Source of the DNA: Synechococcus sp.
GTDB taxonomy: Bacteria > Cyanobacteriota > Cyanobacteriia > Thermostichales > PCC-7336
Length of the DNA: 52,997 nucleotides
Direction: 5' to 3'
Assembly: GCA_051439605.1 (NCBI GenBank)
Contig: JBFRWN010000068.1
Span: 1-52,997, forward strand
The notes beneath the pieces are model-generated. The model made no database searches. It was given only the letters and a program-made list of their open reading frames with translations, and was not told the origin of the DNA. Positions 10,767 to 50,148 of this stretch are shown piece after piece. Position numbers and translations under genes: made by a program. How positions within the stretch are numbered: the first letter of the stretch is position 1; every line of letters starts with the position of its first letter.

Positions 10767-10904
10767 AACGATAGTTTCGTTCGTTAGGTCTACCTTATCT
10801 CTCGTTCTTTTTCTCGGTCATGGGCAAACTGATTTCGTTGAGGATGAACTCAACCACGAGTACTCGACACGAGCACTAAAATTGGTTTACAACACTGCTA
10901 GTTT

Positions 10905-30336: not shown

Positions 30337-30437
30337 AAAAGCTGGACAGCTGAGAATGCTGAGGATAGGACAGTTGGGGGTGCCAAGTTGGCCGCAGCAC
30401 AACTTAAAAAATCTGCAACCGATAGGAGAAGAATGAG

Positions 30438-31613: not shown

Positions 31614-31627
31614 ATGCCCCCCCAATC

Positions 31628-32515
31628 TCAGTTGGGGCTGGAAATGGGTTGCTCGGGGTCGGCAGGGCTGGTAATTAACCCAGTAGTGGGGGAACTGGCG
31701 CTGGCGTAAGATTTGACGGGGATGCGGCCAGCCAAATATGCGGTACGACCGGCCTGAGTAGCTTGTCCCATGGCCCGTCCCATTGCTGAAGGATTGCTCG
31801 CCTGCGCGATCGCCGTATTGATTAATAGTGCATCTGCCCCCATCTCCATCGCTTCAGCTGCCTCAGAAGGCACTCCAATCCCCGCATCCACCACTACGGG
31901 TACGCTGGCTTGCTCGATAATGATGCGAATCTGTTCGCGACATTTCACCCCTTGGCCAGAACCAATGGGGGAGGCAAGGGGCATAACGGTGACGCAGCCA
32001 ATCTCCTGTAGGCGCAGCGCTAATTGAGGGTCGGAATTGATATAGGGCAACACGGCGAAACCCTCTGACACAAGTTGTTTGGCGGCCTCGAAGGTCCCAA
32101 TGGGATCGGGCAATAAATATATGGGGTCCGGGATGACTTCTAGCTTGACGAAATTGTTGTCTGTTTGGCCGATGACATTTTGGGCCATCTCTCGACCTAA
32201 ACGGGCGACCCGCACAGCTTCTTCTGCGGTTTTGCAGCCAGCGGTGTTGGGCAATAGCCAATACTTGGACCAGTCTATGGCTTCCATTAGCCCCACGTGC
32301 CCCGCCGCTTTAATTTGTACTCTTCGGATAGCAACGGTGACGATCTCGGCGCCACTAGCGGCAATTGCCTGCTGCATGTCAGCCATATTGCGATATTTGC
32401 CGGTTCCCACCATCAAGCGGGATCGAAAGCTGCGTCCGGCGATTTGTAGGGCATCTTCAGTGGAGGCAACGATGGGGGGCGAGATTTCGGGATCGTTGAG
32501 GCTGGCAATAGTCAT
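31628..32515 (-). CDS. thiG: Thiazole synthase
   Basis: [39 protein letters not shown]. Confidence 0.96.
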
Positions 32516-32711
32516 TGGTGGCAGTGTCTTTTCGGCAAAAGTGCAATACCCATCCTAATCGAAGCGATCGCCTCTGCCGAGTATTGGTCCTTGTGTTTTA
32601 TGTTTGGTCCTTGCCTGGACAATCGTCCAACCCAGCCTTCTGGAGTTTGATGTTGTTGCTGACGTTGCCCCTCTGGACTTGACTATTTTGGGGGTAGTTC
32701 CGCCTAGGAAT

Positions 32712-33019
32712 ACCTGAGTTCGATATAAAGAAGGGGGCTAAATTGCAGCAGCAGGAGGCAACTGAGCCAGCAATGTTGGCTCAATATTGAGAGACGGTTT
32801 CTTGTCTTGGTGTGTGTGGGCAATCAGCCCAGAAATCAAATTCACCAGGAAATTGATGGAGCTGCGATGTCGGGAATGCTCAATCTGTGAAATGTTTTTG
32901 AGCTGGTCGTTGACTGTTTCAATCAAGGACCGTTTGCATAGCAAGATCTTGTCCATTATGGGTAACAGACGACTGTGCATTTTCTTCTTCAGAGGCGTTA
33001 CCAGCTGCAATCCTTGGCT
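32712..33019 (-). mobile_element. IS982-family remnant (3' part of transposase plus one end)
   Basis: LVTPLKKKM...[31 protein letters not shown]; end-like ACCTGAGTTCGATA at 32712. Confidence 0.85.
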
Positions 33020-33086
33020 GAAGGATGAGGTTTAAAAACAGCAAAATCTGAACCATGCCCTTTGCGATCTACTGAGTTTGAGACAG

Positions 33087-33869
33087 TTACGTTGCTGCCG
33101 TCCAAGTATTGTCAACAGTAATAGAAGCGCCGTTAATAAAGCGGGCATCATCACTGGCGAGAAAGGCTGCTACGCTTGCAATTTCCTCTGGTTCGCAAAA
33201 TCGCCCCTGTAATTTTTTCATATCGGCCTCAGTGAAATCTACGCCTAAAGCAGTGCATTCTTCCATTTCCCTCAAGCCATGAGGCGTTCTGATGAAGCCA
33301 GGTGCAATGGCATTACAACGAATGCCTCGATCGCGAAACTCAACAGCGATCGCTCGGGTTAGCTGCAGAACTGCTCCTTTAGTCGTGCAGTAAAGACTTT
33401 CCATAGGGGCAGCTGTCGTACTAGAAATAGAAGCAGTATTGATGATAGTGCCACCTCCGGCCTCCAACATGCTGGGCAAAATTGCCTGACTCATCAAAAA
33501 CATACTCTTGACATTAACTGCCATCAGCCAATCCCACTCAGCCTCAGTCGTTTTCAGAAAGGGCTTCACGATTAGAGTTCCAGCATGGTTAAACAGGATA
33601 TCTACTTTCGCAAAGCGCTGAAGAATGCGATCGACGGCTGTTTTCACGGCCTGTGCCTGCGAGACATCAGCCTCAACAAATATCGCTTGACCACCAGCCG
33701 CTTCGATCTCACTGGCCAGTTGCTCCCCGGCCTGAGACTGAATATCAACGATCCCAACGCTGGCTCCTTCAGCCGCAAAGCGTAATGTAGCAGCTCGCCC
33801 AGCACCACCGGCACCGCCGCTAACGACTGCAACCCTGTCTGAAAATCGTTGATTCATAATCCTGCTCAA
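33087..33869 (-). CDS. Classical short-chain dehydrogenase/reductase
   Basis: SGGAGGAG, DILFNHAG, S...YCTTK catalytic motif, IAPGFIRT. Confidence 0.92.
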   Translation of the reverse strand: MSRIMNQRFSDRVAVVSGGAGGAGRAATLRFAAEGASVGIVDIQSQAGEQLASEIEAAGGQAIFVEADVSQAQAVKTAVDRILQRFAKVDILFNHAGTLIVKPFLKTTEAEWDWLMAVNVKSMFLMSQAILPSMLEAGGGTIINTASISSTTAAPMESLYCTTKGAVLQLTRAIAVEFRDRGIRCNAIAPGFIRTPHGLREMEECTALGVDFTEADMKKLQGRFCEPEEIASVAAFLASDDARFINGASITVDNTWTAAT

Positions 33870-34510
33870 GCAATGCTCATCATGGTTCTAGGATGCCCAA
33901 CTGGATAGCTCTATCTCAAGTGACTTTAGCCGCTTCAAGATTGCGTAGCAGGAATGCTAGGTATTTAAAGACTTCCAGACAAATTCACATCGGGGGCAAA
34001 ACCCGCAACCAGTTGATGGGTATCGATGGCAACTCAAGTAAGAACACGGAGATCGCTATACAGCTAAATAGTCTTGAATAAGAAAGACTGCTGAAAGTCT
34101 TGCCAGACAAGGGCTTGAGGTTGTCATTTGTGTTTCGTGCCCCGCCCTCTTGTAACGGTAATTTAACTTCGATCGAGCCGAGGGAATACTTATGCCTGCT
34201 TGATATCCACAGCGTGACGGGTATCAGTTTGCAGAGGGGAAGAATGGCTGATCGGGGTAATTAATAAACATTTTTATACGTCTTCTTGGCATGTTGTGCT
34301 TGTTTTTAAGTGTTTATTGGTATTTCATGGTGGGCTCTGGGTATAAATAAGTACGTAATTTGTCTTGCTCCCTTGCGATGCTCCCTTGCGTTTCTTCTTG
34401 AGATGACTATGTAAAGCTCCAAGCCGATTTCTTGGCAGATCGCTCTTGAGAGGCTTTTGGCTTGAGTAATTTCCTTAAACAGCCAGTGACAGCCACAAAA
34501 CACAACAATC

Positions 34511-37500
34511 ATGAACAACTTGACACTAGAAGCCCTTATCGAACAGCAGGTTCGACTATCTCCCCAGGCCCCGGCTGTTTCTTTTCAAGGAGAGAGCTTA
34601 AGCTACCAAGAGCTTGATAGCAGAGCTAATCGATTGGCCAATTATCTACAAGACCAAGGCATCACAGCTAATTCCTTGGTCGGAATATGTCTCGATCGAT
34701 CCATCAACCTAATTATTAGTGTGCTGGCTATTCTCAAGGCGGGTGCCGCTTATTTACCGCTTGATCAAGCTTATCCTGCCGATCGCTTACGTTTAATGAT
34801 TGAGGATTCAGCAGTTCCTTTTATCATTACTCAGAAGCATTTGGATAGAGCTTTGCCGTCAACCGGGGCAAAGCGCATCTTTCTGGATTGTGAAGCGGCA
34901 AATATCGATCGTTTCCCTAATAGTCAACCTCCTAAACAGACAACGCCCGACAGTTTGGCCTACGTCATCTATACGTCTGGTTCAACAGGCAAACCTAAAG
35001 GGGTTGCCATGCATCATCGCCCCCTTGTTAATTTACTGAATTGGCAAAAGCAACAGTTTAAGAACCCCAAGGCGCGAACGCTTCAGTTTACGCCCATTAG
35101 CTTTGATGTCTCATTCCAAGAGATTTTTTCAACCCTGTTCAGCGGCGGCACCCTTATCCTTATTGGGGATACAGACCGGCGGAATAGTGAAACACTCCTG
35201 GTTCATCTTTGTGAGAACTCGGTTGAGCGCTTATTCCTGCCATTCATTGCGCTACAAAATCTAGCCGAAGCGGCAACAAAGGCTCAAAAGTTGCCGGCCA
35301 GGCTGCAAGAAATCGTCACGGCCGGAGAGCAGCTCAAAATTACCCGTTCAATAGTTTCTCTGTTTGACAGACTCAAAAACTGTTCGTTGGTAAATCAATA
35401 CGGCCCCTCAGAGAGCCATGTAGTGACTCAGCATGTTCTCACAGGGGCGCCAAGAGAATGGCCTCATTTGCCTCCTATCGGTCAACCGATTGATAACGCT
35501 CAGCTCTATCTTCTGAAAACTCCGTCAAGGCGAGAGGGCGACCCGATTGTTTTGGCGGAACCCGGTGAGCCCGGCGAGTTAGCCATTGGCGGCATCTGTT
35601 TAGCCAAGGGTTATATCAATCAACCTGAGTTGACCCGCAGACGATTTATCGAAAATCCATTTGTGGATGAGCCAGGAGCTATCCTCTATAGAACCGGAGA
35701 CTTGGTCAAACGCTCTACTGCAGGAGAGTTGGAATATATAGAGCGGCTTGACAATCAAGTTAAAGTTCGAGGGGTTAGGGTTGAACTTGGGGAAGTTGAA
35801 GCTCAAATCAGTCAACATTCCATGGTTAAGGTCAATGCCGTTGCGGCCAGAAAGCGAGCTGACAGCACCACTTATTTGACCGCCTATATCGTGCCCAATA
35901 GTTCCGAGCCTTTGCAAGATTCGACAGAGTTGGAGCTTCAACTCCGCACTTTTCTCAAAGAACGTCTTCCCGCATGCATGATGCCGACTTTCTTTGAATT
36001 TCTCCCGATCTTGCCGCTGACTCCCTCCGGCAAAGTTGATCGCCGCGCCCTCCCCGAACCAATCCAGAAAAGGCCTGCTCTCAGCCAGGATTATCTTCAA
36101 CCTCGCACGGATATTGAGAAAAAGCTGGCAGAGCTATGGTCAGAAATTCTGCAATTCAAAAAGATTGGCGTCAAAGATAACTTCTTTGAGTGCGGCGGTG
36201 ATTCTCTGGGAGCAATGCAGTTAGCTCATGCTATTAGAGAAACCTTTGAGATCAACCTATCAATTAACACTTTAATCAGCTTGCCAACAATTCAAGAATT
36301 AGCCAGGGAAATTGAAAGTCTGACCAACCATAGTGAAATTAGCTGCCCATTCAATAGCTTTACAAGTCAACTAGAATATGATGCAATTCCTAGACTTGAC
36401 CATAATCTGAGCATTCAACCCTTTAGCTTCACCAGTAGTCCTTCCAACATTCTTATCACAGGCTCTACAGGATTTCTGGGAGCTTATCTACTGAATCAAG
36501 TTTTGCAACAAACTCAAGCGAAAGCTCATTGCCTAGTCAGAGCTAAAAACCATGTGGAAGGAAGCAGCAGAATTCAATGCAATCTAGAGGCTTATGGGCT
36601 ATGGAAACCCGAATATGGGGGTAGGGTACAACCAGTATTGGGTGATTTAGCCTTATCTAACTTAGGTATGGACACGGATGTGTTTGAGCAGCTCAGCAAT
36701 AAAATAGAAGCGATTTACCACAGCGGCGCTGCTGTCAATGTTGTGTATCCTTATTCTTCCCTATATGCCACTAACGTTGGAGGCACAGAAAATCTGCTCA
36801 GGTTAGCCAGCAAGAGTCGCTTAATTCCTTTTCATTTCATATCGACGCTTGATGTTTTCCAAACTAAGGGTACCTTTAACAGTGGCTTAACTTCTGAGTC
36901 TAGCACTCTCAATCCAACTGAAGCCTTTGAGTTTGATGGATATGCCACGACGAAATGGGTGGCTGAGAAAATGGTTTGGCATGCCCAAAGTCTTGGGCTT
37001 CCAGTTTCTGTCTATAGGCCAACTATGATCTCTGGAGATAGTCAAACTGGAGTCTGTAACACCACGGATCTAGTAAGCTACTTGGTCAAAGGTTTTATCC
37101 AGCTCGGTGCAGCACCTAAAATGAACACTGTTCTGAACCTTGTCCCTGTTGACTATGTCAGTAAAAGCATAATCCATTTATCACTTCAACAGGAATCTTT
37201 GAACAAGGCGTTCAATCTTGTCAATTCAATCCCAATCAGCATGAATTCATTTATTGAATCCATTAGCCAATATGGCTACCCTCTTGATGTTCTAGAGCCT
37301 GATGACTGGAGTCACCTTCTAAATAAATTAAACCACCAGGCAGATGGATTAATGGCAACTCTGACACTATCAGAACAGAAAAACGTAGAAAACTATATGG
37401 TCAGAACTTCAATTAATGCCAGTCAGGCACCTAATGAGAACGTTCTGCAAGGGCTTAAAGACACAGCTATCACATGCCCAGAAATCAATTTTGAGCTTCT

Positions 37501-37573
37501 TAAAAGCTATTATAGATATCTCGAAAGAGCCAACCTATTTGGGTTTTCAAGTAAGCTTAGCAACGCAACTTAA
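34511..37573 (+). CDS. Stand-alone NRPS-like adenylation-thiolation-reductase (A-T-R) enzyme
   Basis: A: YTSGSTGKPKG, FDVS, YGPSE, YRTGD, KVRGVRVELGEVE, PSGKVDR. T: FFECGGDSL. R: TGSTGFLG, GYATTKWVAE, YRP. No C domain. Confidence 0.93.
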   Translation: MNNLTLEALIEQQVRLSPQAPAVSFQGESLSYQELDSRANRLANYLQDQGITANSLVGICLDRSINLIISVLAILKAGAAYLPLDQAYPADRLRLMIEDSAVPFIITQKHLDRALPSTGAKRIFLDCEAANIDRFPNSQPPKQTTPDSLAYVIYTSGSTGKPKGVAMHHRPLVNLLNWQKQQFKNPKARTLQFTPISFDVSFQEIFSTLFSGGTLILIGDTDRRNSETLLVHLCENSVERLFLPFIALQNLAEAATKAQKLPARLQEIVTAGEQLKITRSIVSLFDRLKNCSLVNQYGPSESHVVTQHVLTGAPREWPHLPPIGQPIDNAQLYLLKTPSRREGDPIVLAEPGEPGELAIGGICLAKGYINQPELTRRRFIENPFVDEPGAILYRTGDLVKRSTAGELEYIERLDNQVKVRGVRVELGEVEAQISQHSMVKVNAVAARKRADSTTYLTAYIVPNSSEPLQDSTELELQLRTFLKERLPACMMPTFFEFLPILPLTPSGKVDRRALPEPIQKRPALSQDYLQPRTDIEKKLAELWSEILQFKKIGVKDNFFECGGDSLGAMQLAHAIRETFEINLSINTLISLPTIQELAREIESLTNHSEISCPFNSFTSQLEYDAIPRLDHNLSIQPFSFTSSPSNILITGSTGFLGAYLLNQVLQQTQAKAHCLVRAKNHVEGSSRIQCNLEAYGLWKPEYGGRVQPVLGDLALSNLGMDTDVFEQLSNKIEAIYHSGAAVNVVYPYSSLYATNVGGTENLLRLASKSRLIPFHFISTLDVFQTKGTFNSGLTSESSTLNPTEAFEFDGYATTKWVAEKMVWHAQSLGLPVSVYRPTMISGDSQTGVCNTTDLVSYLVKGFIQLGAAPKMNTVLNLVPVDYVSKSIIHLSLQQESLNKAFNLVNSIPISMNSFIESISQYGYPLDVLEPDDWSHLLNKLNHQADGLMATLTLSEQKNVENYMVRTSINASQAPNENVLQGLKDTAITCPEINFELLKSYYRYLERANLFGFSSKLSNAT

Positions 37574-37613
37574 ACCCGAACTCTCTCAGTAAGCCCTCAA
37601 AAGAAAGACTACA

Positions 37614-40505
37614 ATGCTCAAGCAACTTAAATTACCTAACCTCAAAGGTTTCAGATCACAAGCACAAGCAAAAACAAAACCATTCCACGAACTAATTCCC
37701 AAAAGGTCAATTGGTTCAGGTTTGTTTTTGGCGGTCATGGGAGGCGCTGTATTCAGCATTGGTGCAAATTCTATAATGTTTTATAGAGTGTTAAAGCAAC
37801 AAGCTGAACATCACATCAGAGATGTACTGAGCACAGAAGTTAATGCGATCGAAAGTAAATTAACTCCCATAACACAATCTTTGAACAATTTAGATAGTGT
37901 AATAACATTAATGTATGAACAAGGAGTTGATGATCTAGAATCCTATAAAACGATCCTCCTAAGGTTTTTCTTAAGTAGACCAGAACTAGTTGTAGGAGCT
38001 TCTTTGCAACAAGTCCCCTATGGTCTTGTTAAAAATCAGCAGTGGTTTTCCGGTTTCTACTATGAAAACTATAACAATCCAGGCCAGATAGGGAGTCCCA
38101 TGGCACCTCCCTATAGCGATATTATGTACTCTGACCTAGCCATCGACGATGACGCTCCTAACCAAGAATACTACACCATCAATATTAATACTGGTGAAGA
38201 TAACTGGCTAGAACCCTATGAATGGTCTGGCATTACTATGACCACTTTGAATCATATTTTATATAGCAACAGTGGGAAAATGCTTGGCTTTGTTTCGATG
38301 GATGTCAATTCCACTGAACTTAGTAAGGAATTATCAGGGTCAGTTGTCTCAGACCAGGGTTACTTTATTGTCCTGAGTACGTTAGGGAATATCATTTCCT
38401 ATCCGCCAGATACTACGAAGATCCAGATGAGATATGATTCTGTTCCAGGCTTAGCTGAGGTTTGGGATAAAATTCAAAATGACAACTCAGGTCTCATAAA
38501 GCAGGATGGTCAATATTGGGCCTATCAACGTGTAGATACTAACGACTGGATTATCCTAGCAACGATTCCAGAATCAGTTGTGATGAGGCCAGTTTTAATG
38601 ATTACGGTTGGCGGTGCAATAGGCGCTGGGACATTGATTGCTATTGTCATAGCATTGTTTGTGAAAAAGCTGAATTTTAGACTTAAGCCCATTTTGGAGG
38701 AATGCCAAAAGCTTGAGATGGAAAATCTAGAGCGTGATCAAAGCATCTACCAAGAGCAAAATAGTGCCTCCACAATTCCAGAGTCAATCAGCCACGAGGA
38801 TATGGACGAATTAGATGTTTTGTCCTATACATTTTACCGAATGTCTGCCAAGTTAAAAACTTCTTTTGACAACTTGGAGTTGAAAGTTAAAGAAAGAACG
38901 CTGGAACTGGAAGAGGCCAAAGAAGCTGCCGATACAGCTAGTAAAGCTAAAAGCGACTTCTTAGCAAATATGAGTCATGAATTGCGCACACCGATGAATG
39001 CCATCATTGGCTACAGCGAGATGTTGCAAGAAGAAGCTGAAGACTTAGATGATGATATCTTCAGTGAAGATCTGACAAAGATTCATGGTGCCGGAAAGCA
39101 TCTCCTCAGCCTAATTAACGATATTTTGGATCTCTCAAAAATTGAAGCTGGCCGTATGGAGCTATTTTTAGAGGAATTTGAGATTGGTCAACTACTTAAG
39201 GAAATTGACGCAACTGTTTCACCTTTGATGAGTCAAAAGTCTAATCAGCTGACCATTAAGTGTTTCGACAATGTCGGCAGTATGAAAGCTGATCTCACAA
39301 AAGTTCGCCAGTCCCTGCTGAATTTGCTCAGTAATGCTTCTAAGTTCACAGAGCAAGGAACAGTGAACTTGACCGTCAACCGCTACAACCAAGATGGTCA
39401 ATCCTGGTTGAGTTTTGAGGTCGGCGATAGCGGTATTGGCATGACACCAGAACAGATGAACAAGCTATTTCAGGCGTTCAGTCAGGCTGATGCCTCAACA
39501 ACTCGAAAGTATGGAGGCACTGGTTTAGGGCTGGCTATCACGAAGAAGTTTTGCGAAATGATGGGAGGGAATATTACCGTAGAGAGCCAAATCAATCAGG
39601 GAAGTACGTTCACAATACATTTGCCAGCTGAAGTAAAAATTCAGACCACTCCATCTAATGTAGAAACGATCAGCAAAGGGAATTCTAAAGCTCTTATATC
39701 GCGTAAGCCCGTAATTTTAGTGATTGATGATGATCCCTTGGTGCATGACATTCTTGAAAGGTCTCTGAGTAGTCACGGATTCGATATCGTCACTGCAACA
39801 AATGGTGAAGATGGGTGCCGTATTGCTCAAGATCTGAAACCCGATGCTATTACGCTAGATGTGATGATGCCAGGTATGGATGGCTGGGAAGTTTTGAGTC
39901 AGTTAAAGGCTAACCCCGCGATCGCCCATATTCCTGTCATCATGCTGTCAATGGTAGACAATAAGAGCCTCGGATATGCCTTGGGAGCCGATGAATACCT
40001 TCTTAAACCCATTGACCGCCAGCAGCTCGTCAAGGTAATTGAGAAGTATAAAGTCAAGAAATCGCCATCTGTTTTACTAGTTGTGGAAGATGATTCAACA
40101 ACTCGAGAAATGCTCAAACGACAGCTGGAAATAGATGATGTCAAAACTCTTGAAGCTTCTGATGGTGCCCAAGCTCTGACATTGATGAAATCAACGAAGC
40201 CAGGGGCGATTATTCTCGATCTAATGATGAAAGATATGGATGGCTTTGAGTTTATTCATGAGCTGCAAAAGCATCCTGACTGGCAGTCAGTTCCAGTTAT
40301 TGTCATGACGGCTAAAGAATTGACTGGGGGAGAGCGAGAGTTCCTTAACAGCCGAGTTCAGAAAATCTTTCAGAAGGGTGCCTACGAGCGCTCGACGCTG
40401 TTGAGTGAAGTGACTAATCTCCTTTCAAAAGCACTGAGCATGATAGATGACTGTCATCAGGAAGGAGTCATACAAAAGTCAGCAGATATTCCCGTGCTGA
40501 AATAG
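37614..40505 (+). CDS. Membrane hybrid histidine kinase (TM-dCache-like-TM-HisKA-HATPase-REC-REC)
   Basis: Two TM segments flanking a ~275-aa periplasmic region with WLEPY...[41 protein letters not shown]; two receivers (LDVMMP, LDLMMK). Confidence 0.93.
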
Positions 40506-40586
40506 ATATCTGGGCTCTCGAACTTTTTGAGAAAAAACTGATGAGCTGCAGCCGATCGACGAAATTAATCATTGAGGATGAAAAAC

Positions 40587-40964
40587 ATGACCAAGATACT
40601 CTTAGTTGAAGACAACGAAATGAATCGAGATATGCTGTCGCGGCGGTTGGCACGTAAGGGATATGACGTTCTCATCGCGACTGACGGTGCTGAAGGATTA
40701 GAGAAGTCAAAATCGGATTCCCCTGACTTAATTCTGATGGATATGAGTTTGCCTGTCATTGATGGGTGGGAAGCAACTCGTCAACTGAAGTCAGATACTC
40801 ATACCAAAATGATTCCGGTGATTGCGTTAACAGCTCATGCCATGTCGGGAGATCGCGAAGAAGCATTAGCGGCTGGGTGTGATGAATACGACACTAAACC
40901 TATTGAATTTTTACGCTTACTTGGAAAAATAAAAACCTTGCTAGAGAAAGTGCAAGCTGTTTGA
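40587..40964 (+). CDS. Single-domain response regulator (DivK-like)
   Basis: ILLVEDN, LMDMSLP, ALTAHAM, TKP. Confidence 0.92.
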   Translation: MTKILLVEDNEMNRDMLSRRLARKGYDVLIATDGAEGLEKSKSDSPDLILMDMSLPVIDGWEATRQLKSDTHTKMIPVIALTAHAMSGDREEALAAGCDEYDTKPIEFLRLLGKIKTLLEKVQAV

Positions 40965-41181
40965 GAAAAGAAGACTTATTACCGACTCATATTAGTTTTT
41001 TGAAAGAGTGACTAGTTCATGTTAGCAAAATGTTCTAAATCCCTTGAGGGAATTCTTGGAAAGTTACTGATTTGTGTTTGGCTATCTGAACCAACCAGAA
41101 ATAGTTACAGTGAGACAGGCCTCCAATCTCTTTTTGAATGGGCGTGTTTAACCTTATCTAACGAGCTCAGAGGGATAAATC

Positions 41182-42981
41182 ATGCTTGATAAGCTGGAAA
41201 TTACCACTTCCTTACTGGCATATTGGCGCCATGAATTATACGGACCCCTCAATATTATTCAAGGATATTGCGATCTCATTCTTGAAGAGCTAGAAGAAGA
41301 TACTAAGTTCTCTGAGACTCATAAATTTTGCGCAATTCCAACAGAAATTTTGAGGACTGGTAAAGATATTCAGGCAATCATTGCTGACACATTCAGTTCC
41401 AAGATTCTTGAAGAAGGAAGCCGCCTCCGTAACATCATTGAACTCAGATCATCACTAGAACAGCAGACTGTGCCAAAGATCGATTCCATCGAGCAGAATG
41501 CCCGAGAAATATTGGCAAGTGATGGTGTGCCTTTCTCTACTACAGAAGACATTGAAAAAATCCTAAGAGCAGCTTCTAAATTAAGAAGTTTACTGCTTGG
41601 TGAAAATATGGGGTGGCTGAAAACCTATGCGTCCCCTGTTGGAGATCGCCAACTTCAAGATCAGATCGAGAAAGAACTAGAAGAAAGTTATTCTGGCAAT
41701 AGAGCAAGTCTGTTTGATGTAGAAAAGTCTCTCAATGAGATCAGATCTCACTCACACGGTAAATATGTAAGAGCTGAAGATTTTAAGATCCTAATTGTTG
41801 ATAATAATCGCAGTAACCAAGAGTTGCTCTACCGGCAACTCGATCGAGAAAGATATTCAGTCAGCTTAGCGGAGTCTGGTGAAGATGCTCTCCAAGCAGT
41901 TGCCAAGGAAAATTTCGACCTTATTCTGCTAGATATTGTCATGCCTGGACTAAATGGTTATCAAGTATTGGATCGACTTAAGAAGGGCCAATGGCAGCAT
42001 ATCCCGGTGATCATGATATCGTCGCTGGCTGAAATTGAGAGCATTACAAAATGTATTGAAATGGGGGCAGAAGATTATTTACCAAAACCATTTAGTTTCA
42101 CGCTACTGCGCGCAAAAATAGATGCATGTCTAGAAAATAAAAAGCTTCGAGACCAAGAAAAGATTTACGTTTCTAGACTTGCTCTAGCAAACCAGGAAAT
42201 CGCAGAGCTGAACGAGCAGTTAGCAGCCGAGAATAACCGCCTCTCAACTGAGCTAGAGATCGCTCGTCAACTTCAAGAATTCATCCTACCTCAAGCTTCG
42301 GATTTAAGAAATATTGAGGGTATTGACATTGCAGGATTCATGGAACCTGCCGAGGAGGTCGGTGGTGATTACTATGATGTTCACGCATGTAATGGCAGCG
42401 TCCATATTAGCATCGGGGATGTAACTGGACACGGTTTAGAGAGTGGGCTCTTAATGATCATGGTTCAAACTGCCATGCGGACCTTAATCGAAAGTCAGCA
42501 AACAGACCAGAAAAAGCTTTTGAATACGCTTAACCATGTCATCGTTGATAATGCCAAAAAGCTTAAGTCCGATCGGAACCTTACGCTGTCATCACTAGAC
42601 TACTTTAATGGCCACCTGAGCATTGCTGGCCAACATGAAGATATCATCATCGTTCGCTCTGATGGACATATTGAATTCATTGATACAACCTATTTAGGTT
42701 TCCCCATTGGCTTAGAGAAAAATATTGCAGACTTTATTGATCAGAGACATCTTGATTTATCCCCAGGAGATGTTGTGGCACTTTACACTGACGGGGTTAT
42801 TGAGGCAGAAAATGATGAAGGAGAACCGTACGGAATCCAACGCCTATGCGAGGTCATTTGTGATCATCGTATTCAAGATTCACAGTTGATTATAGAGAAA
42901 GTCATTGAGGACTTAAAAAGTCACATTGGTGCCAGCCAAGTTTTAGATGACATTACATTACTTATCCTAAAGCAGCAGTAG
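41182..42981 (+). CDS. HisKA-like-REC-PP2C (SpoIIE/RsbU-type) serine phosphatase
   Basis: RHELYGPLNIIQGY (H-box, no ATPase domain); LLDIVMP receiver; VGGDYYD, IGDVTGHG, YTDGVIEA, DDITL. Confidence 0.9.
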   Translation: MLDKLEITTSLLAYWRHELYGPLNIIQGYCDLILEELEEDTKFSETHKFCAIPTEILRTGKDIQAIIADTFSSKILEEGSRLRNIIELRSSLEQQTVPKIDSIEQNAREILASDGVPFSTTEDIEKILRAASKLRSLLLGENMGWLKTYASPVGDRQLQDQIEKELEESYSGNRASLFDVEKSLNEIRSHSHGKYVRAEDFKILIVDNNRSNQELLYRQLDRERYSVSLAESGEDALQAVAKENFDLILLDIVMPGLNGYQVLDRLKKGQWQHIPVIMISSLAEIESITKCIEMGAEDYLPKPFSFTLLRAKIDACLENKKLRDQEKIYVSRLALANQEIAELNEQLAAENNRLSTELEIARQLQEFILPQASDLRNIEGIDIAGFMEPAEEVGGDYYDVHACNGSVHISIGDVTGHGLESGLLMIMVQTAMRTLIESQQTDQKKLLNTLNHVIVDNAKKLKSDRNLTLSSLDYFNGHLSIAGQHEDIIIVRSDGHIEFIDTTYLGFPIGLEKNIADFIDQRHLDLSPGDVVALYTDGVIEAENDEGEPYGIQRLCEVICDHRIQDSQLIIEKVIEDLKSHIGASQVLDDITLLILKQQ

Positions 42982-42994
42982 AAAGCCACTAATT

Positions 42995-43600
42995 ATGATG
43001 ATGATTAAACATGAATTAAACCCTAAAAAATTTCTAGAACCCCTCCAATACCATGATGGCTATTCGGAAGCGAATTTCTTATTTAATTACCAACTACTAA
43101 AGGAAGAATATAGAAACAATGGTTTACTCGTTAATCACTATTCATTTGGTGAGATTGCACTTCAATTCATGAAGACCCTACATGCAAGCTACTTTGAACA
43201 AGGTTTCTTGTCGGCAACTGAAATCAGACAATCTGTCGATTATATTGCTAATGAATTATTAGAGAACTCAATCAAATATAGTGATGAAACTGCAACCAAG
43301 ATTAATCTGAAAATACATGTTAACAAGCAAAGAATCATAGTCGAATCAACAAATCTAATTAGTAAAAATAGATCTGAAACTTTTTTGAATTATTTACAAA
43401 ACCTCATGTACTCAGATCCTTCAGAATTGTATATCAGGCAGTTAGAAAAAAACTCAAGTGATAACAACAAATCTGGGTTGGGATTGTTGTCAATGATACA
43501 TGACTATAGAGCTGAGATAAACTGGAAATTCACTTCTACTGAGCTCAATCATAGTGTTTTAAGTTGTATTATTGTTCGACTGCCTACTAAGTTTATATAA
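42995..43600 (+). CDS. Anti-sigma-type HATPase Ser/Thr kinase (Slr1658/SiaB-like)
   Basis: YIANELLENSIKYS (N box), SGLGLLSMIHDY (G2-like box); lies between PP2C and STAS genes. Confidence 0.75.
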   Translation: MMMIKHELNPKKFLEPLQYHDGYSEANFLFNYQLLKEEYRNNGLLVNHYSFGEIALQFMKTLHASYFEQGFLSATEIRQSVDYIANELLENSIKYSDETATKINLKIHVNKQRIIVESTNLISKNRSETFLNYLQNLMYSDPSELYIRQLEKNSSDNNKSGLGLLSMIHDYRAEINWKFTSTELNHSVLSCIIVRLPTKFI

Positions 43601-43644
43601 ACCCAAGTAAAGTCTTCCTAAATCTGAATAGTAATCTTAAACCC

Positions 43645-44001
43645 ATGAAAAACAAATCCCCAAGCTACTCAATTTATTACGATTGCGAATCTGAGATCGT
43701 TAGCCTCAGTGGAAAACTGCATTTAATTCAGCGCGAGAAAGCATTTCATGAAATCCTAAGTTGGTTCGATCTTATTATCGATAAAGAACCCCCGAGGGTT
43801 CTACTTGATGTTAGTGGTCTAGACTATCTCAACAGTATGGGTATTAGTATGATCGCAAAATTTGTGATTAGAGCCAGAGATAAAAAGACCATTCACGTTG
43901 TGGTTAAAGCTTCAAAAGAAATTATTTGGCAAGGTAAGTCATTGGTGAATTTGAAGCGAATTATGCCCAGCATAGATTTTATCTATGACAATATTACCTG
44001 A
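43645..44001 (+). CDS. STAS-like anti-anti-sigma protein (Slr1659/SiaC-like)
   Basis: LSGKL...LDVSGLDYLNSMGISM (phospho-Ser motif)...WQGKSLVNL. Confidence 0.78.
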   Translation: MKNKSPSYSIYYDCESEIVSLSGKLHLIQREKAFHEILSWFDLIIDKEPPRVLLDVSGLDYLNSMGISMIAKFVIRARDKKTIHVVVKASKEIIWQGKSLVNLKRIMPSIDFIYDNIT

Positions 44002-44048
44002 CAAGTTGTGTAGATATATCCAAAGGATATTCATTTGAGAGGCTATTT

Positions 44049-46190
44049 GTGATGAATGTTTCAACATGTGATAATCAAATTTCTAATAAATACGTTTCTC
44101 TCTTTGACGATCTTACGGGGTTACCTAATCGAAGAGCTTTTCTAGAATATCTGGAGCAGCATATTGAGCTTTCTGTTGACTATGAAAACCAGCTATTTGC
44201 AGTGCTAGTTCTTGGTGTTGAAAATTTTGGTGTTATCAACAGTAGCTTGGGAATTCATATCGGAGATCAGCTACTTGTTCAAATTGGTAAAAGACTGCAA
44301 GAAGTCATACGGGTGAATGATTGCCTATTTCGTGTAGGAGGAGATGAGTATGTCGTTGTCATCCATGACATCAAAAGCGTTACCAGTCTAGATAAGTTCG
44401 CGGCACGAATTTACGAAAGCCTATTATCCTCCTTCCATCTTGAAGATAATGAAATCTTTATTGGCATCCGCCTGGGGATTACTCACAATCAAGTGAGTGC
44501 GGGTAAAGCTGAAGACTTTTTCCGTGATGCATGCGCCGCAATGAATCATGCAAAGTCTTCTGAGTCCCTCCATTGCGTTGTGTTTCAACCCAAAATCCAA
44601 GAGGAATTTGAGCATCATCTTGACTTAGCTAATTCCTTAAGAAAGGCATTAAACAGAGATGAACTCTTTTTAGAATATCAACCTATTTTTTCATTAAGTG
44701 AAGAGTTCTTGGTTGGATTTGAAGCACTTGTTCGATGGAAACATCCTAGGTGGGGGGTTTTATCGCCTGATAAATTTATCCCTTTGGCAGAAAAAAGCCA
44801 ACTCATCGAACCGCTAGGAGAATGGGTTCTTCAGGAAGCCTGTCGGCAATTAAAGAGTTGGCAAGAACAATTTTCGGAAGCACGTAAACTTTCTATTAGC
44901 GTAAATGTTTCAGTTCGTCAGATACTTTGCGGTGATTTTCACAAAAAAGTTAGTAAAGCTCTCAAAATAGCTAATCTTAAACCGAAATTTCTAAGTCTAG
45001 AAATTACAGAAAGTGTTTTGCTAGAACATAGTCAACAGACACTTCTCGAGCTAGAAAAAGTTAAGTCACTTGGAGTGAAAATCGCGATCGATGATTTTGG
45101 TACCGGTTACTCTTCTTTAAGTTACTTGCTTGACTTTCCTTGCGACATCCTCAAGTTAGATGCATCATTTACTGACGATGTAGATAATAATCATAGAAAG
45201 TTTTACCTTGTTCAGAGTTTACTCGCATTAGGACAAGGTTTAGGAGTCGAGGTGACTGCAGAGGGCTTAGAAACTCAAGAACAACTCGCTCATTTTAGAG
45301 CTTTAGGCTGCAATTATGGGCAAGGATATATTTTTTCTAAACCATTGAATACTCAAAATTCTCAAAGTTTTATTTTGTCACATATTTCTGCCAACAAAAT
45401 CCTAGGTGATATCGAAAATAGGCACTCTGTTTCAAATCCGAATGTCCTGCCTAACGGCTATTCTTTCAGAGATGATTTGCTCACAAAAAATCAGTATCTC
45501 GAAATGAAAATCAATAATCTAGCACAGGAGGTCGATGATTTAAAAAATTTATTGAGTACTGCTGAGAGTCATGCTGAAGTTATTGAGTCCCAGCTTTACC
45601 AGGAGGTTTCTGAACATCAGAAGACATTTCTTAAGTTGGAAGAAAGTAATCTTGAATTAAGGCGTCTGAGCTATATTGACCCTTTGACTCAAATCCCTAA
45701 CCGCCGATACTTTGACGAACACTTATGTCAGGCTTGGGAAAATGCGATTTTTCTTCAAGACTCAATCAGCATGATTATTGTTGATGTGGATTACTTCAAA
45801 CTTTATAATGATGAATACGGTCACCGAACTGGAGACTTCTGCTTACTCCAAATTGCCCAAACCTTATCCGATGCATTAATTTCCTCTACAGATTTTGTCG
45901 CGAGGTATGGCGGTGAAGAATTTGCCATTATCTGTTCGGGGCTGTCTCAAGAAGATGTTGTTGAAATGGCTCAGAGGATCTGCACAACTGTCATTTCCCT
46001 TAAATTGCAGCACTGTCGTTCTCCTGTTAGTTCTTATGTAACTGTGAGTGCTGGAGTGGCTAATATCATTCCTCAAGAGTCTAATTCTATTAATGATTTC
46101 TTCCAGCGGGCTGACAAAGCACTCTATTCTGCTAAACAGAGTGGTAGGAACGGGTTCAGTTTAGCTACGTCTATGAAAGCTATTTTTTAA
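44049..46190 (+). CDS. GGDEF(degenerate)-EAL-coiled coil-GGDEF c-di-GMP enzyme
   Basis: DLTGLPNR...GGDEY; FEALVRW, EITE, DDFGTGYSS, AEG.E, QGY; DPLTQIPNRR, DVDYFK, RYGGEEF, ADKALY.AK..GRN. Confidence 0.92.
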   Translation: MMNVSTCDNQISNKYVSLFDDLTGLPNRRAFLEYLEQHIELSVDYENQLFAVLVLGVENFGVINSSLGIHIGDQLLVQIGKRLQEVIRVNDCLFRVGGDEYVVVIHDIKSVTSLDKFAARIYESLLSSFHLEDNEIFIGIRLGITHNQVSAGKAEDFFRDACAAMNHAKSSESLHCVVFQPKIQEEFEHHLDLANSLRKALNRDELFLEYQPIFSLSEEFLVGFEALVRWKHPRWGVLSPDKFIPLAEKSQLIEPLGEWVLQEACRQLKSWQEQFSEARKLSISVNVSVRQILCGDFHKKVSKALKIANLKPKFLSLEITESVLLEHSQQTLLELEKVKSLGVKIAIDDFGTGYSSLSYLLDFPCDILKLDASFTDDVDNNHRKFYLVQSLLALGQGLGVEVTAEGLETQEQLAHFRALGCNYGQGYIFSKPLNTQNSQSFILSHISANKILGDIENRHSVSNPNVLPNGYSFRDDLLTKNQYLEMKINNLAQEVDDLKNLLSTAESHAEVIESQLYQEVSEHQKTFLKLEESNLELRRLSYIDPLTQIPNRRYFDEHLCQAWENAIFLQDSISMIIVDVDYFKLYNDEYGHRTGDFCLLQIAQTLSDALISSTDFVARYGGEEFAIICSGLSQEDVVEMAQRICTTVISLKLQHCRSPVSSYVTVSAGVANIIPQESNSINDFFQRADKALYSAKQSGRNGFSLATSMKAIF

Positions 46191-46258
46191 CTTTTCAGAG
46201 TCTCTTCATTTCTTCATGTGTTGTCAATTACGAATTTTTCAAGCAAGCATATACAGCG

Positions 46259-47086
46259 GGTGTTGACAAGTTAATCGTTCTGGCACCGATGGCTAGGCTG
46301 TGTAAGGCTTAGAGGATGAGCAGCATTTACAAACGACACCGTTTCCCAAACGAGATCATCTCCTACTGCGTCTGGCTGTATTACATCTTTCCTCTCAGCT
46401 TCAAAGAAATTCATAAGATGATGCTCTATCGTGGCATCCAGGTCACCTATGAAGCGATCCGACAATGGTGTCTCAAGTTCCTCAAAGCTATGCCAATCAA
46501 CTGCGCCGCAACCGTCCTAAGCTTGCTCATAAATGGTATCTGGATGAGGTGGTGATTAAGATAAACGGTAAGCAATACTACCTGTGGCGAGCCGTCGATA
46601 AGAATGGCCAGGTACTCGATATATTGATGCAAAGCTGTCGGAATGAAAAATCAGCCAACAAGTTTTTCCGCAAACTGTTGAAGCCTCAAGGTTTTACCCC
46701 CAGGGTTGTCATCACTCACAAACTCAAATGCTATGGTGCCTCCATGAAGAAGATCCTGAAAGGAATAGACCACAGGCAGCATAAGGGGTTGAACAATCGA
46801 GCGTAGAACTCGCATCGACCGACAAGAGTTAGGGAGAGGCGAATGGGCCTCTTTAAATCCCCAGGTCAGGCCCAACGATTTCTTTCAGCATCTGAACCGA
46901 TACGAGGACACTTTCACCCCCATCAACACAAACTCTCTGCAACCGAATTCTGAGAAACGATGCGCCAGTGCTTCGAGAGTTGGCATGAAGTAACGAGTCA
47001 AAACGCGGCTGTATAAATCAGCACCTCGCCCCTGCCTCAGAAAATCAGTGCTTTTTTTGTTGATCTTTAGTTCACTTGACAATGCC
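46259..47086 (+). mobile_element. IS6-family element with inactivated transposase
   Basis: YKRHRFP.EII...WYLDEV.IKI.G...YLWRAVD...NNRA; frameshift near 46480 and TAG at 46804-46806; imperfect IRs GGTGTTGACAAGTTAA and (reverse complement) GGCATTGTCAAGTGAA; 828 bp; no flanking direct repeat seen. Confidence 0.88.
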
Positions 47087-47250
47087 GGCATATCACCGCT
47101 TGAAAATTAGAGTTATAATTTCCCGTAAAGAATCGAGAAACACCTTGTAAGCGGTTGTTCTTTTCTATTTTGTAAGTTGTAGAGTTAGTGAGAATTTAGG
47201 CCGAATAAATCATTCAACTTAATGCACATTCTTTACGCCTCTTCAAGATA

Positions 47251-48030
47251 TTGGAACGCTTCAGCTGGACACTGCCATCTCTTCCCCTGATGCCCCCTTT
47301 AGATCGTGCAGTCCATCTATGGATGTTTGAACTAGCTTGTAATTTTCAAACTATTGCCCGGCTGGAAAAATTTCTCAACCAAGCGGAATGGCAAAAAGTA
47401 CTAAGATTCTGTTTTGAACGCGATCGCAATTCTTATATTGCCGGGAGAGGACTCCTTCGCCTAATTTTAGGTTTGTATCTGGACAAATCTCCCTCAGATA
47501 TACATTTTGACTACGGTCCTCAAGGAAAACCAGTTTTAGCAAAACAGCATGTATCCTCATTAAACTTCAATCTCTCGCATTCGAACAACCTTGTCCTGCT
47601 TGCATTTAGCTGCAATCGTGATGTAGGAGTTGACATCGAATATCATCGTTACCTGATGGACTGGCAAGGAATAGCCAAATACTATTTCGCACCTGGCGAG
47701 CAGTCAGCCCTGAAAAAATTGCCCCCTGAGCAACAGCAACATGCTTTTTTTGACTGCTGGACTCGAAAGGAAGCCTACATTAAAGCTCTGGGCGGAGGAC
47801 TAAGTATTCCACTCGATCAATTTGAAGTCTCTCTTGCTCCCAACCAACCCGCACGCTTAATCAGCGTCGAAGGGAAAACGGAGAAGTCCAAGCGCTGGAG
47901 CATGGTAGGAATTGACACTCAATCAAACTATTCTGCAGCACTCGTAGTGGAAGGCCCACCCCCACAAATGCATACTTGGCTGACTTCAATTGAGTCTTTG
48001 CTTTCGCTATCTGAGCGAAACTCTTTTTAG
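47251..48030 (+). CDS. Sfp-type 4'-phosphopantetheinyl transferase
   Basis: GKP, FNLSHS, VGVDIE, FFDCWTRKEAYIKALGGGL; start uncertain (47251 TTG or 47290 ATG). Confidence 0.92.
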   Translation: MERFSWTLPSLPLMPPLDRAVHLWMFELACNFQTIARLEKFLNQAEWQKVLRFCFERDRNSYIAGRGLLRLILGLYLDKSPSDIHFDYGPQGKPVLAKQHVSSLNFNLSHSNNLVLLAFSCNRDVGVDIEYHRYLMDWQGIAKYYFAPGEQSALKKLPPEQQQHAFFDCWTRKEAYIKALGGGLSIPLDQFEVSLAPNQPARLISVEGKTEKSKRWSMVGIDTQSNYSAALVVEGPPPQMHTWLTSIESLLSLSERNSF

Positions 48031-48452
48031 GATCGTAGGAAGGAGCCCACATTCATCAGGCAGGAGATGTATAAAAAAATTTTCGAAATCGCCATTGGCA
48101 TGGTGTAATTTTGACAATTGATGCCGGGTGAAGTGGGGAGATAAAACAACCAGCACCAATGCTCAGAAATGTGTCGAAATGAGATAGGGTCTCCAACTGG
48201 TTGCGGTTTTTGCCTCCTATGTGAATTTGTCTGGAAGCCTTTAAATAGGGTTAGCTGTTTAAGTCTCAATCTATTGCTATTACTAGCTTTCAAGGCCATG
48301 AGGCAGTGGCCAAGTGCAAGAGAAATTGAAATCATCGCCCAAAAGCCTTGCACCATCCATCCGCCATGTACCGATGCGTAGCCCCAGGCCAGTTATCTCG
48401 GGAGCGTAATAAATTTGCAGTCTGATTTTGAGATAAATTTGTCTGGCTACTT

Positions 48453-48554
48453 ATTGAGAATCAACCACGTAAAAATAAGACTTCTAGGAATACTCTTATC
48501 AATATTGTGGCTCCAATTTAGGCCTTATTGCGCTTATTGAGAATGACTATAAAT
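48453..48554. promoter_or_regulatory. Cluster of Fur-box-like motifs
   Basis: ATTGAGAAT at 48453 and 48536; the latter forms the imperfect 19-bp palindrome ATTGAGAATGACTATAAAT; CTTATCAAT at 48495-48503. Confidence 0.4.
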
Positions 48555-48661
48555 TTATTACGCTCCCTACGATCCTGCTACCCAACTAACTGGCGCCAGT
48601 CTTCCGTTTGCGCTAAACCAAAAGTGAAGGCTGCAGCATTCCCTAATTAAGCAATGGTGGT

Positions 48662-50143: not shown

Positions 50144-50148
50144 GGGGT

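Follow-up and report, generated by a model that had tools for sequence, protein, structure and literature searches.

The stretch of DNA analysed here, called the window, spans positions 1 to 52,997 of contig JBFRWN010000068.1 of Synechococcus sp. (assembly GCA_051439605.1), a metagenome assembly of an uncultured population. Genes were called from a list of open reading frames (ORFs) together with Pfam and NCBIfam scans. At 34511-37573 on the forward strand lies the gene of an enzyme of 1020 residues that is built like a nonribosomal peptide synthetase (NRPS) and consists of adenylation (A), carrier (T) and thioester reductase (R) domains, in short A-T-R. It is followed at 37614-40505 on the same strand by the gene of a hybrid histidine kinase, in which a transmembrane helix (TM), a periplasmic dCache domain, a second TM, HisKA, HATPase_c and two receiver (REC) domains follow one another. 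The block around these two genes is read herein as a signalling island built on a synthase-receptor pair, and the coupling of enzyme and kinase is considered somewhat more probable than its absence. The comparative evidence for the coupling is strong as a genomic argument; everything biochemical is what we infer.

The gene run continues on the forward strand. A single-domain response regulator (40572-40964; Response_reg, 89 bits in Pfam) is followed by a protein with REC and PP2C (SpoIIE) domains and a weak HisKA (41182-42981; SpoIIE 130 bits, REC 101 bits, HisKA 21.5 bits with a cutoff of 26.9). Next come a protein of the slr1658 superfamily (DUF6272), a presumed switch kinase (42995-43600; NF047703, 136.7 bits, cutoff 100), and a protein of the slr1659 superfamily with a STAS-like fold, its presumed phospho-switch partner (43645-44001; NF047705, 108.7 bits, cutoff 100; STAS 24.4 bits, cutoff 22.6). 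The run ends with a GGDEF-EAL-GGDEF protein (44049-46190), identified by Pfam and NCBIfam domains and by motif reading. On the other side, a classical short-chain dehydrogenase/reductase (SDR) is transcribed divergently at 33087-33869 on the reverse strand (adh_short_C2, 199 bits in Pfam). Every gene of the run that a first-pass annotation of this DNA had claimed was found on its strand by ORFs, Pfam and NCBIfam. The intergenic gaps of 40, 217, 13, 44 and 47 bp that it had listed are exact by the ORF coordinates. Its gap of 81 bp between kinase and REC gene is valid when the REC protein starts at the in-frame ATG at 40587, and the gap becomes 66 bp with the TTG at 40572 or 72 bp with the ATG at 40578. 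A scan of 32500-48500 for promoters and terminators was uninformative (25 promoter-like sites with 29.7 expected, 12 terminator-like sites with 13.6 expected), and the 40-bp spacer that separates the A-T-R and kinase genes showed no hairpin.

The domains of the enzyme were assigned as follows. The A domain matched TIGR01733 with 396.7 bits (cutoff 317.4) and AMP-binding with 237.8 bits. The carrier domain matched PP-binding with 57.8 bits, and its GGDSL motif is invariant in the four aligned proteins. The R domain matched TIGR01746 with 304.8 bits (cutoff 213.35), and the motifs TGSTGFLGA and Y-x-x-x-K (YATTK) were read in it, which we take to be the catalytic motifs of a thioester reductase. 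No condensation-domain family was among the Pfam matches of the protein. On all four defining points the protein belongs with the NRPS-like minimal synthetases that end in a thioester reductase. A fatty-acyl or carboxylic acid reductase (CAR) was considered and rejected: the CAR model gave 221 bits against a cutoff of 1300, and the amino-acid adenylation model passes. With this query, the gene was the sole NRPS-like gene found in its own genome.

For the specificity region of the A domain, the best solved matches were tyrocidine synthase 2 (residues 650-794, E 1e-26) and gramicidin S synthase 2 (E 2e-25), and the next match had an E-value of 9e-13. Presumably these two domains are the proline-loading first modules of TycB and GrsB. 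Aligned to both synthases, the window's domain shares D, V, Q, A, V and V at positions that we take to belong to the specificity code, has V for I in the TAGE motif, and has Q for H after the N of NxYGPSE. This Gln for His is the one code difference from the TycB/GrsB-type domains, and two related loci (L078 and L083) match fully. Code position 278 was mapped via two solved proline-type domains, and the alignment of proline-type with other-type domains is uncertain there. Overall, the specificity region appears closest to those of proline-activating domains.

Two further genes may contribute to the chemistry. An SDR homologue of 76-93% protein identity adjoins the A-T-R gene in five other loci (L003, L004, L070, L072 and L078), and the SDR is, judged from these neighbourhoods, a conserved partner of proline-type A-T-R genes. 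Separately, an SDR was seen within about 3 kb of the A-T-R gene in three distant relatives (30-33% identical in A-T-R), namely L006 and L009 from Rubrobacter assemblies and L011 from a Desulfobacteraceae assembly; it is 32-38% identical to the window's SDR, and no kinase lies there. Downstream of the run, the Sfp-type phosphopantetheinyl transferase (PPTase) that had been noticed at first pass was recovered as an Sfp/HetI-type protein at 47251-48030 on the forward strand (ACPS 75.9 bits; NF042922 213 bits, below its cutoff of 370). It could prime the carrier domain. A second copy, 82% identical, lies on another contig of the own genome (G000, C112:3214-3960) beside more copies of a short repeat, and no PPTase match was found in the L001-L004 or L072 loci. 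The PPTase was therefore excluded from the conserved unit.

Two hydrophobic stretches of the kinase, at about residues 34-58 and 327-350, enclose a domain of about 265 residues. By Pfam the domain stays just under the cutoff of MCP-like_PDC_1 (26.5 with a cutoff of 27). By sequence it matches a solved dCache domain, 3li8, with an E-value of 3e-7 (phmmer). An AF2 model of the domain reached a predicted local distance difference test (pLDDT) score of 82.5, and Foldseek aligned it to dCache structures with E-values down to 6.6e-16 and a probability of 1.0. The sensor thus classifies as a dCache, that is, a double PDC fold between two membrane helices, and the earlier label of a Cache-type hybrid kinase is borne out by both sequence and fold.

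The binding pocket was then compared with characterized receptors. In the sensor alignment, Q155, Y157, Y158, Y173 and D201 (Q184, Y186, Y187, Y202 and D230 of the kinase) are invariant or nearly so. Their spacing is exactly that of R126, W128, Y129, Y144 and D173 of PctA, with Gln in place of R126. According to PMC10589655, R126 of PctA holds the ligand carboxylate, the betaine receptor PacA has Gln at the R126 position and keeps the conserved Asp, and the M. mazei domain 3LIB is counted as an amine-type dCache. The best fold matches include the histamine receptor TlpQ, mmHK1S-Z3 (3LIB), PacA and PctD; amino-acid receptors rank lower, with all E-values close. The pocket looks amine-type, as mapped by the spacing of positions that are shared with the amino-acid motif. 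An enzyme that would remove a carboxylate, beside a sensor without the carboxylate-binding Arg, would make a coherent picture.

Linkage of the two genes was followed in the window's own order, in the order of genome G007 (173 genomes) and in 401 genomes sampled evenly from the phylum. In thirteen loci reached through the sensor domain, a dCache hybrid kinase gene comes directly after an A-T-R gene. In the close loci L001-L004 (A-T-R 70-91% identical), the full order from A-T-R to GGDEF-EAL is kept in all four. The order of G007 gave 24 sensor matches, two of them cut by contig ends; a reductase gene lies directly upstream in 8 of the 22 that could be determined, and the seven best-scoring matches are all linked to it. 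In the phylum sample, three of five sensor matches outside the own genome are linked. No such kinase was found within up to 10 kb per side of the A-T-R gene in eight remoter relatives (29-38% identical), which come from Prochloron or from other phyla.

The reverse search was performed with the reductase domain in the order of G007. It gave about 108 matches in 72 of the 173 genomes, the seven best of which are the linked loci already found. Twenty further loci were picked by score and ORF size, blind to their neighbours; roughly 80 lower-scoring matches were left outside, many of which lie in ORFs of at least 1400 residues. Nine of the 20 carry a dCache-HAMP hybrid kinase, three carry only the REC-kinase that in other loci comes after the sensor kinase, seven have no kinase, and one lies at a contig end. 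The kinase gene follows the A-T-R gene directly in L087, L096, L099, L100 and L101. In L098, a MatE exporter gene (4682-6082) stands between A-T-R and a two-REC dCache kinase, and the next REC protein is 82% identical to the window's. In three loci whose enzyme has an additional methyltransferase domain (A-MT-T-R), a gene of a PNMT/NNMT-family amine N-methyltransferase stands between enzyme and dCache kinase (L102:4250-5020, L103:6161-6940, L104:6098-6940), which suggests stepwise N-methylated amino alcohols as candidate products. A Mutator-family transposase ORF of about 670 residues occupies the place of the kinase before the REC-kinase in L097 (4776-6839) and L105 (2891-4897); in L106 a 202-residue ORF does so, and the REC-kinase is retained. 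With the eight already known loci included, a kinase or REC-kinase partner is kept in 20 of 27 determinable reductase-ranked loci. The kinases of the reductase-chosen loci had been missed by the sensor query because their sensor domains are too different. The synteny of A-T-R and Cache kinase that was expected at first pass is therefore present in 13 loci reached through the sensor, and in nine (with three more in decayed form) of the 20 reached through the reductase.

The partners around the pair change from locus to locus. Five adenylation code groups occur in the linked loci: proline-type, to which the window belongs, DLF.NALTY, DIL.LGM and two unnamed ones; we take the DLF.NALTY code to be alanine-like and the DIL.LGM code to be glycine-like. 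The A-T-R enzymes of some linked loci contain an embedded methyltransferase domain, and the tailoring partner is an SDR, an epimerase-family protein or an amine methyltransferase. The kinase cores of the five close loci form a two-REC clade on a branch of length 1.58. Their sensors group with those of L070 and L071, whose kinase cores have the usual single REC. In most linked loci a REC-HisKA-HATPase protein is the downstream partner; in the window's group it is the REC/PP2C/slr1658/slr1659/GGDEF-EAL set. Constant over the linked loci is the order of a reductase-terminated enzyme and then a dCache kinase. The comparison of the two gene trees that the first-pass annotation had proposed came out congruent, with every supported grouping common to the R-domain tree and the sensor tree. 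On a 32-row R-domain tree, the label of kinase linkage needs just two changes, a count that is biased because the first 13 rows were found through the kinase.

These results bear on whether the two genes are linked in function at all. The metabolite made by the enzyme might serve the cell itself, for instance as an osmolyte-like amino alcohol, building block or reactive aldehyde, and the kinase might respond to an amine of the environment, for example choline, betaine or a polyamine of neighbours or hosts; the genes would then travel together by a shared island and recombination tract. This would agree with the many external-amine receptors in the dCache fold family, with the lack of a synthase beside most related sensors, with the lack of an exporter in the window's block, and with the result that the Pfam and NCBIfam scans of the island revealed no DNA-binding regulator that ties the kinase to the expression of the enzyme. 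It is nevertheless judged improbable. The adjacency persists while kinase core, output module, substrate code and tailoring genes change, a pattern not expected from hitch-hiking alone. The retention of a kinase partner in most reductase-ranked loci, the agreement of reductase and sensor trees, and the location of the genes for MatE and the amine N-methyltransferase, precisely between synthase and kinase, also speak against it.

The two genes have a mosaic history in the window's group. The region 33000-46400 was aligned with L001-L004 and the identity was calculated in sliding bins. Against L001 and L002, the identity is 75-87% in the A domain (34506-36105), 93-100% in 36120-38957 and 75-89% from 38958 on. 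Against L003 and L004, it is 72-92% in the A domain, mostly 45-68% in the same middle stretch and 68-97% from 38958 on; one 60-nt bin of this stretch falls to 33-35%, and the low part lies between about 36180 and 38890. Sliding identity, synonymous divergence and approximately unbiased (AU) tests together delimit an exchanged cassette at 36120-38957 on the forward strand. It comprises the second half of T, the R domain, the 40-bp spacer, and the TM1-dCache-TM2-linker part of the kinase. It begins in the carrier domain, immediately behind GGDSL, and ends where HisKA starts. Within these limits the window is 97-100% identical to L001/L002, against 75-89% in the A domain and kinase core, and about 45-65% identical to L003/L004, against 80-92% in the flanks. 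The second version of the cassette is about 55% identical to the window's.

Synonymous divergence separates the two versions, types A and B, clearly. Between types, the proportion of synonymous differences (pS) is 0.77-0.82 in T-R and sensor and thus saturated. The flanks have a synonymous divergence (dS) of 0.3-1.2 with a nonsynonymous to synonymous ratio (dN/dS) of about 0.1, and within type A the dS is 0.01. The saturated synonymous divergence therefore points to different histories rather than different constraint. The A-domain tree places the window with L003 and L001 with L004, and the R and sensor trees place the window with L001. The AU tests reject the rival groupings with p = 6e-7 for the A domain, 1.5e-11 for R and 7e-4 for the sensor; the groups tested were named after the trees had been seen, which is a weak point.

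Further copies of the cassette were sought in larger sets. A large protein set yielded 81 sensor homologues; of these, a kinase core close to the window's is present only in P0010 (core 85%) and in P0083, a fragment of L001, so the two cassette types are all that are known. A metagenome scan with the A-T-R alignment gave five loci, namely L001's own contig, one 3.3-kb fragment and three relatives of 35-40%, and no new cassette type among them. Contigs of four sequencing runs were compared with 33000-46400. Pieces of one run cover 36708-38960 with 29 differences in 2277 bases, and one run contig links 35233-36003 to 36074-40966, with 135 differences in 771 bases in the first part and 316 in 4893 in the second. 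These contigs fit the mosaic and may come from the same population as L001.

The pattern of the cassette resembles pherotype polymorphism, as far as alignments can tell: the putative signal-making gene and the sensor half are polymorphic together in two types, and the kinase core and the downstream genes are conserved. It is possible, with a chance well short of even, that the coupling is combined with pherotypes. Each reductase version would release a different form of the product, for example aldehyde or alcohol, which would be read only by its own sensor; selection would keep the types, and recombination would homogenise the flanks. The two types sit on one backbone, are saturated between types and near-identical within a type over distant genomes, and have their boundaries at domain borders, just after the serine of GGDSL and where HisKA begins. 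For the type-A sensor, which moved recently, dN/dS is 1.6, from few changes, with about 0.1 predicted from the flanks. The binned assembly G007 contains both L001 and L004, and hence a locus of each type; it may be one genome with both types or a bin that mixes two strains. In Bacillus, comQ clusters are 65-70% identical at the nucleotide level and thus differ by 30-35%, and gyrA is about 99% identical, by the figures taken from PMC4408185.

Several points count against pherotypes. Only two types are seen, and the search of 81 homologues added no other close relative of the kinase core than the two named. The cassette does not include the A domain, whose specificity positions are identical in both types, so any difference in signal between the types must arise in the T-R half. 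We know of no precedent for a signal-type difference that arises there, and both R domains have the same catalytic motifs. Since the R and sensor regions are neighbours on the DNA, one recombination tract explains their joint transfer, and no selection for matched pairs is needed. Between L003 and L004, pS is 0.78 in T-R and 0.54 in the sensor, a hint that the two parts have separate histories. The reading of the cassette as a marker of specificity types is attractive but weaker than the coupling.

The coupling of enzyme and kinase must itself be weighed against a number of observations. L001 equals L002. The close group holds four independent sequences only, with two cassette types, which is a small sample. 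No A-T-R gene lies upstream in 14 of the 22 determinable sensors in the order of G007, and in the window's own order the five sensor homologues outside the own genome (33-38% identical) all lack an upstream reductase. Seven of the 19 determinable reductase-chosen loci have no kinase, including the proline-code clade L090-L095. One sensor (L075, G149:C145) is near-identical to those of L074 (G149:C300) and L073 and has no synthase beside it. Arg in L082 and Lys in L085 are exceptions at the Gln position of the pocket. In L072 (G039:C1:1247400-1267300), of type B, A-T-R and kinase are both split by frame breaks (at about 8800 and at 10913-10976), and the kinase of L001 carries a stop codon. G039 is assembled largely as one 7.9-Mb contig, and the broken copies in G039 and L001 may reflect decay or assembly error. 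As had also been remarked at first pass, the window's own block contains no tailoring or export genes by Pfam scan, and the missing exporter counts here as well. Finally, the assignment of adenylation codes to substrates is a weak point. Apart from these, it was noticed in genome G149 that the L074 sensor adjoins an A-MT-T-R gene, and the L075 copy may be an orphan receptor.

The block is a horizontally acquired island, foreign to its host. The T-R half as query gave no match in three genomes of the same genus, one of which is a complete single contig. A DNA search with 29000-48900 in genomes of the family gave only short domain-level matches from SDR to PPTase and no copy of the island, with no match to the SDR. 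Congeners do have the flanking ABC, MlaD and ThiG genes, which are 68-76% identical there. Three assemblies of 6.8-10.6 Mb contain the closest copies of the locus; in these donor-like genomes, ThiG is 68-69% identical to the window's, compared with 80-100% for the island and, in the alignment above, 75-100% for the locus. The GC fraction is 0.419 in the island and 0.492 in the rest of the window, and the locus is low in GC in other genomes too.

Remnants of mobile elements surround the island. At its left edge, 32738-33010 on the reverse strand encodes the C-terminal 50 residues of a transposase (DDE_Tnp_1_3, PF13612, 66 bits, profile positions 105-154 of 155), and an IS6-family transposase fragment lies at 46465-46806 on the forward strand (DDE_Tnp_IS240, PF13610, 88 bits, profile positions 3-98 of 139). 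Of the insertion-sequence scars proposed in the first-pass annotation, the IS6-type fragment was recovered, and the second fragment falls just outside the start of the annotated block. An inverted repeat of 54 nt, with arms at 33962-34015 and 48194-48247 that are 93% complementary, brackets the stretch from A-T-R to PPTase. Copies of it occur on other contigs of G000 and in G002, G004 and G006, and it looks like a small dispersed mobile repeat. The pair was tried as the ends of a composite element flanking 34016-48193 and was rejected as the island boundary, because it is a dispersed repeat family and because the SDR outside it belongs to the conserved locus in five other genomes.

Two other gene groups of the window lie outside the island. 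A pentapeptide-repeat protein with a C-terminal GUN4-like domain is encoded at 24909-26765, with a second long pentapeptide-repeat protein after it. At 48662-52674, the gene of a TIR-domain protein is separated by 5 bp from the next one, which encodes an nSTAND1 NTPase with WD40 repeats. The GC fraction there is 0.573, far above that of the island, and the pair looks like a defence-type gene pair.

The downstream genes were examined for a route to cyclic di-GMP (c-di-GMP). The PP2C protein carries an H-box/DHp-like stretch, RHELYGPL, at its N-terminus. In the last enzyme of the run, judged by the motifs generally known to mark activity, the EAL domain is intact (EAL and DDFGTGYSS), the C-terminal GGDEF domain reads GGEEF and lacks the upstream RxxD site, and the N-terminal GGDEF domain is degenerate (GGDEY). 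By these catalytic motifs the protein classifies as an enzyme of c-di-GMP turnover. The first-pass annotation had compared the run with the SiaABCD partner switch. The order of PP2C, kinase, STAS-like and GGDEF genes stands. A Sia assignment fails at the family cutoffs, with 28.9 bits for SiaB (NF038262, cutoff 85), 19.3 for SiaC (Pfam, cutoff 24.5) and 220.3 for SiaD (cutoff 290). The slr1658/slr1659 regulator pair takes its place, with both proteins above their superfamily cutoffs and the genes 44 bp apart. The protein that had been called a HATPase kinase (42995-43600) is thus of the DUF6272/slr1658 superfamily and weakly SiaB-like, and the one called a STAS protein (43645-44001) is of the slr1659 superfamily and also passes the STAS model. 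The single REC protein has counterparts of 82-91% identity in L001-L004, L072 and L098. In L086 (G260:C89), it was additionally observed that a sensor of the same family (36% identical) is apparently fused directly to a PP2C domain 55% identical to the window's (8831-10876); no kinase lies between them, and no A-T-R gene is nearby.

From these parts, the following mechanism may be proposed for the synthase-receptor pair. The A-T-R enzyme would adenylate proline or a close analogue and load it on the carrier domain, which the nearby Sfp-type PPTase could prime. Reductive release would give an amino aldehyde or amino alcohol, prolinal or prolinol, the oxidation state of which the divergent SDR would possibly adjust. 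The small secondary amine would reach the periplasm and be bound by the dCache domain of the adjacent kinase, with Gln in the pocket in place of the carboxylate-holding Arg and with the amine-binding Asp and the aromatics kept. From the kinase His, phosphate would move to the REC domains of the kinase, on to the N-terminal His-box of the PP2C protein and finally to this protein's own REC, and this relay would switch the PP2C phosphatase. Phosphatase and slr1658-type kinase together would set the phosphorylation of the slr1659 STAS-like protein, which would control the GGDEF-EAL-GGDEF enzyme and hence c-di-GMP. The pocket residue, together with the exporter and amine methyltransferase genes in sister loci, would fit a secreted amine. 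The synthase-receptor idea put forward at first pass is thus upheld in its linkage and in the congruence of the trees, and is revised in the families of its switch proteins.

The same genomic evidence would apply if the kinase monitored the product of the enzyme as feedback on the metabolism or envelope of a single cell, and none of it speaks to cell density. That the circuit would act on c-di-GMP or a further kinase, rather than on the promoter of the synthase itself, would suit such an autocrine or homeostatic role. Since the sensor domain is periplasmic, the product must first leave the cytoplasm, and the exchange of cassettes between distant lineages is easier to explain by a molecule that passes from cell to cell. 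A purely autocrine role is rated as rather unlikely. As a wider and doubtful generalisation, cyanobacteria might carry a large, hitherto undescribed family of private channels, in which an NRPS-like reductase with its own amino-acid specificity, and in some cases with N-methylation, makes an N-alkyl amino aldehyde or alcohol and a co-diversifying dCache kinase reads the product; in the window's branch, reductase half and sensor half would form an exchangeable cassette that moves between distant cyanobacteria and sets who talks to whom. If the coupling is real, the locus is a testable candidate for chemical communication in benthic marine cyanobacteria, tied to c-di-GMP and hence to aggregation and motility. 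Ligands would be assigned to a whole branch of orphan dCache sensors, and matched pairs of enzyme and sensor could serve as orthogonal parts for synthetic biology. The exchange of cassettes would be a non-peptide example of pherotype-like evolution.

The output side of the island may be compared with two known systems. Like SiaABCD of Pseudomonas aeruginosa, it places a PP2C phosphatase, a small kinase and a STAS-like phosphoprotein before a diguanylate cyclase. Unlike in SiaABCD, the phosphatase here has a REC domain and a His-box, and the output enzyme has an intact EAL domain too. The product of 42995-43600 belongs to the same superfamily as Slr1658 of Synechocystis sp. PCC 6803. Without the slr1658 gene, described as a putative two-component system gene, recovery from iron limitation is impaired, and one genetic study of the family is cited (PMC7555055). 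The passages of PMC7555055 on Slr1658 that were consulted mention no A-T-R and no c-di-GMP enzyme; both are present here.

The sensor side is comparable with the dCache_1AM sensors PctD, PacA, McpX and mmHK1S-Z3. The double-Cache fold and the conserved Asp and aromatics are shared, and the carboxylate-binding Arg is likewise not kept. The full dCache_1AM motif comprises W155, F188, Y189, M215, S217 and D235 of PctD and the R103-D133 pair, and the comparison here covers the positions shared with the amino-acid motif. Known members of dCache_1AM sense external amines, whereas here the putative product is encoded beside the sensor.

Related enzymes are known from other bacteria. ATRed of Xenorhabdus indica is reportedly a minimal stand-alone A-T-R synthetase that releases an amino aldehyde (PMC7586950), and the enzyme of the window is stand-alone in the same way. 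The ATRed product forms a pyrazine by dimerisation, a route presumably closed to secondary amines like prolinal, and the consulted part of PMC7586950 names no receptor. PvfC of Pseudomonas likewise has an A-T-R architecture. In the Pvf system, the nonribosomal peptide synthetase PvfC makes extracellular small-molecule autoinducers, and their receptor is still to be found according to PMC10194917; unlike in Pvf, a candidate receptor is encoded next to the synthetase in the window. The pvf cluster needs PvfA, PvfB (a diiron N-oxygenase) and PvfD. The present block does not belong to it, since no domains of these types occur in the ORFs scanned between 32079 and 52674, the stretch to which this search was confined.

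In the distribution of its variable parts, the locus is like ComQXPA of Bacillus subtilis and agr of Staphylococcus, in which the signal-making gene and the sensor half are polymorphic and the rest is conserved. The sensor halves of ComP and AgrC belong to the variable block. The signals of ComQXPA and agr are ribosomal peptides; here there is no peptide gene, the variable block on the enzyme side is the T-R half, and two types are seen.

Self-encoded pairs of signal and receptor are a textbook feature of proteobacteria and firmicutes. In CqsA/CqsS of Vibrio and LqsA/LqsS of Legionella, the gene of the autoinducer synthase adjoins the gene of a membrane histidine kinase that senses its product and feeds a phosphorelay. 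The product in those systems is a small amino-acid- or acyl-derived molecule, and the window shares with them a candidate synthase gene beside a kinase gene. CqsA and LqsA are acyl-CoA transferases dependent on pyridoxal phosphate, unlike the NRPS-like A-T-R reductase found here, and CqsS and LqsS sense within their membrane helices, unlike the periplasmic dCache of this kinase. The first-pass annotation knew of no such system in cyanobacteria, and our search agrees with it: in the full-text literature, as distinct from subscription journals and supplementary tables, no signal pair of NRPS-like reductase and Cache kinase was found in cyanobacteria or elsewhere. The consulted part of a phylum-wide survey of cyanobacterial NRPS and polyketide synthase clusters (PMC4247773) likewise describes no pairing of A-T-R and sensor kinase.

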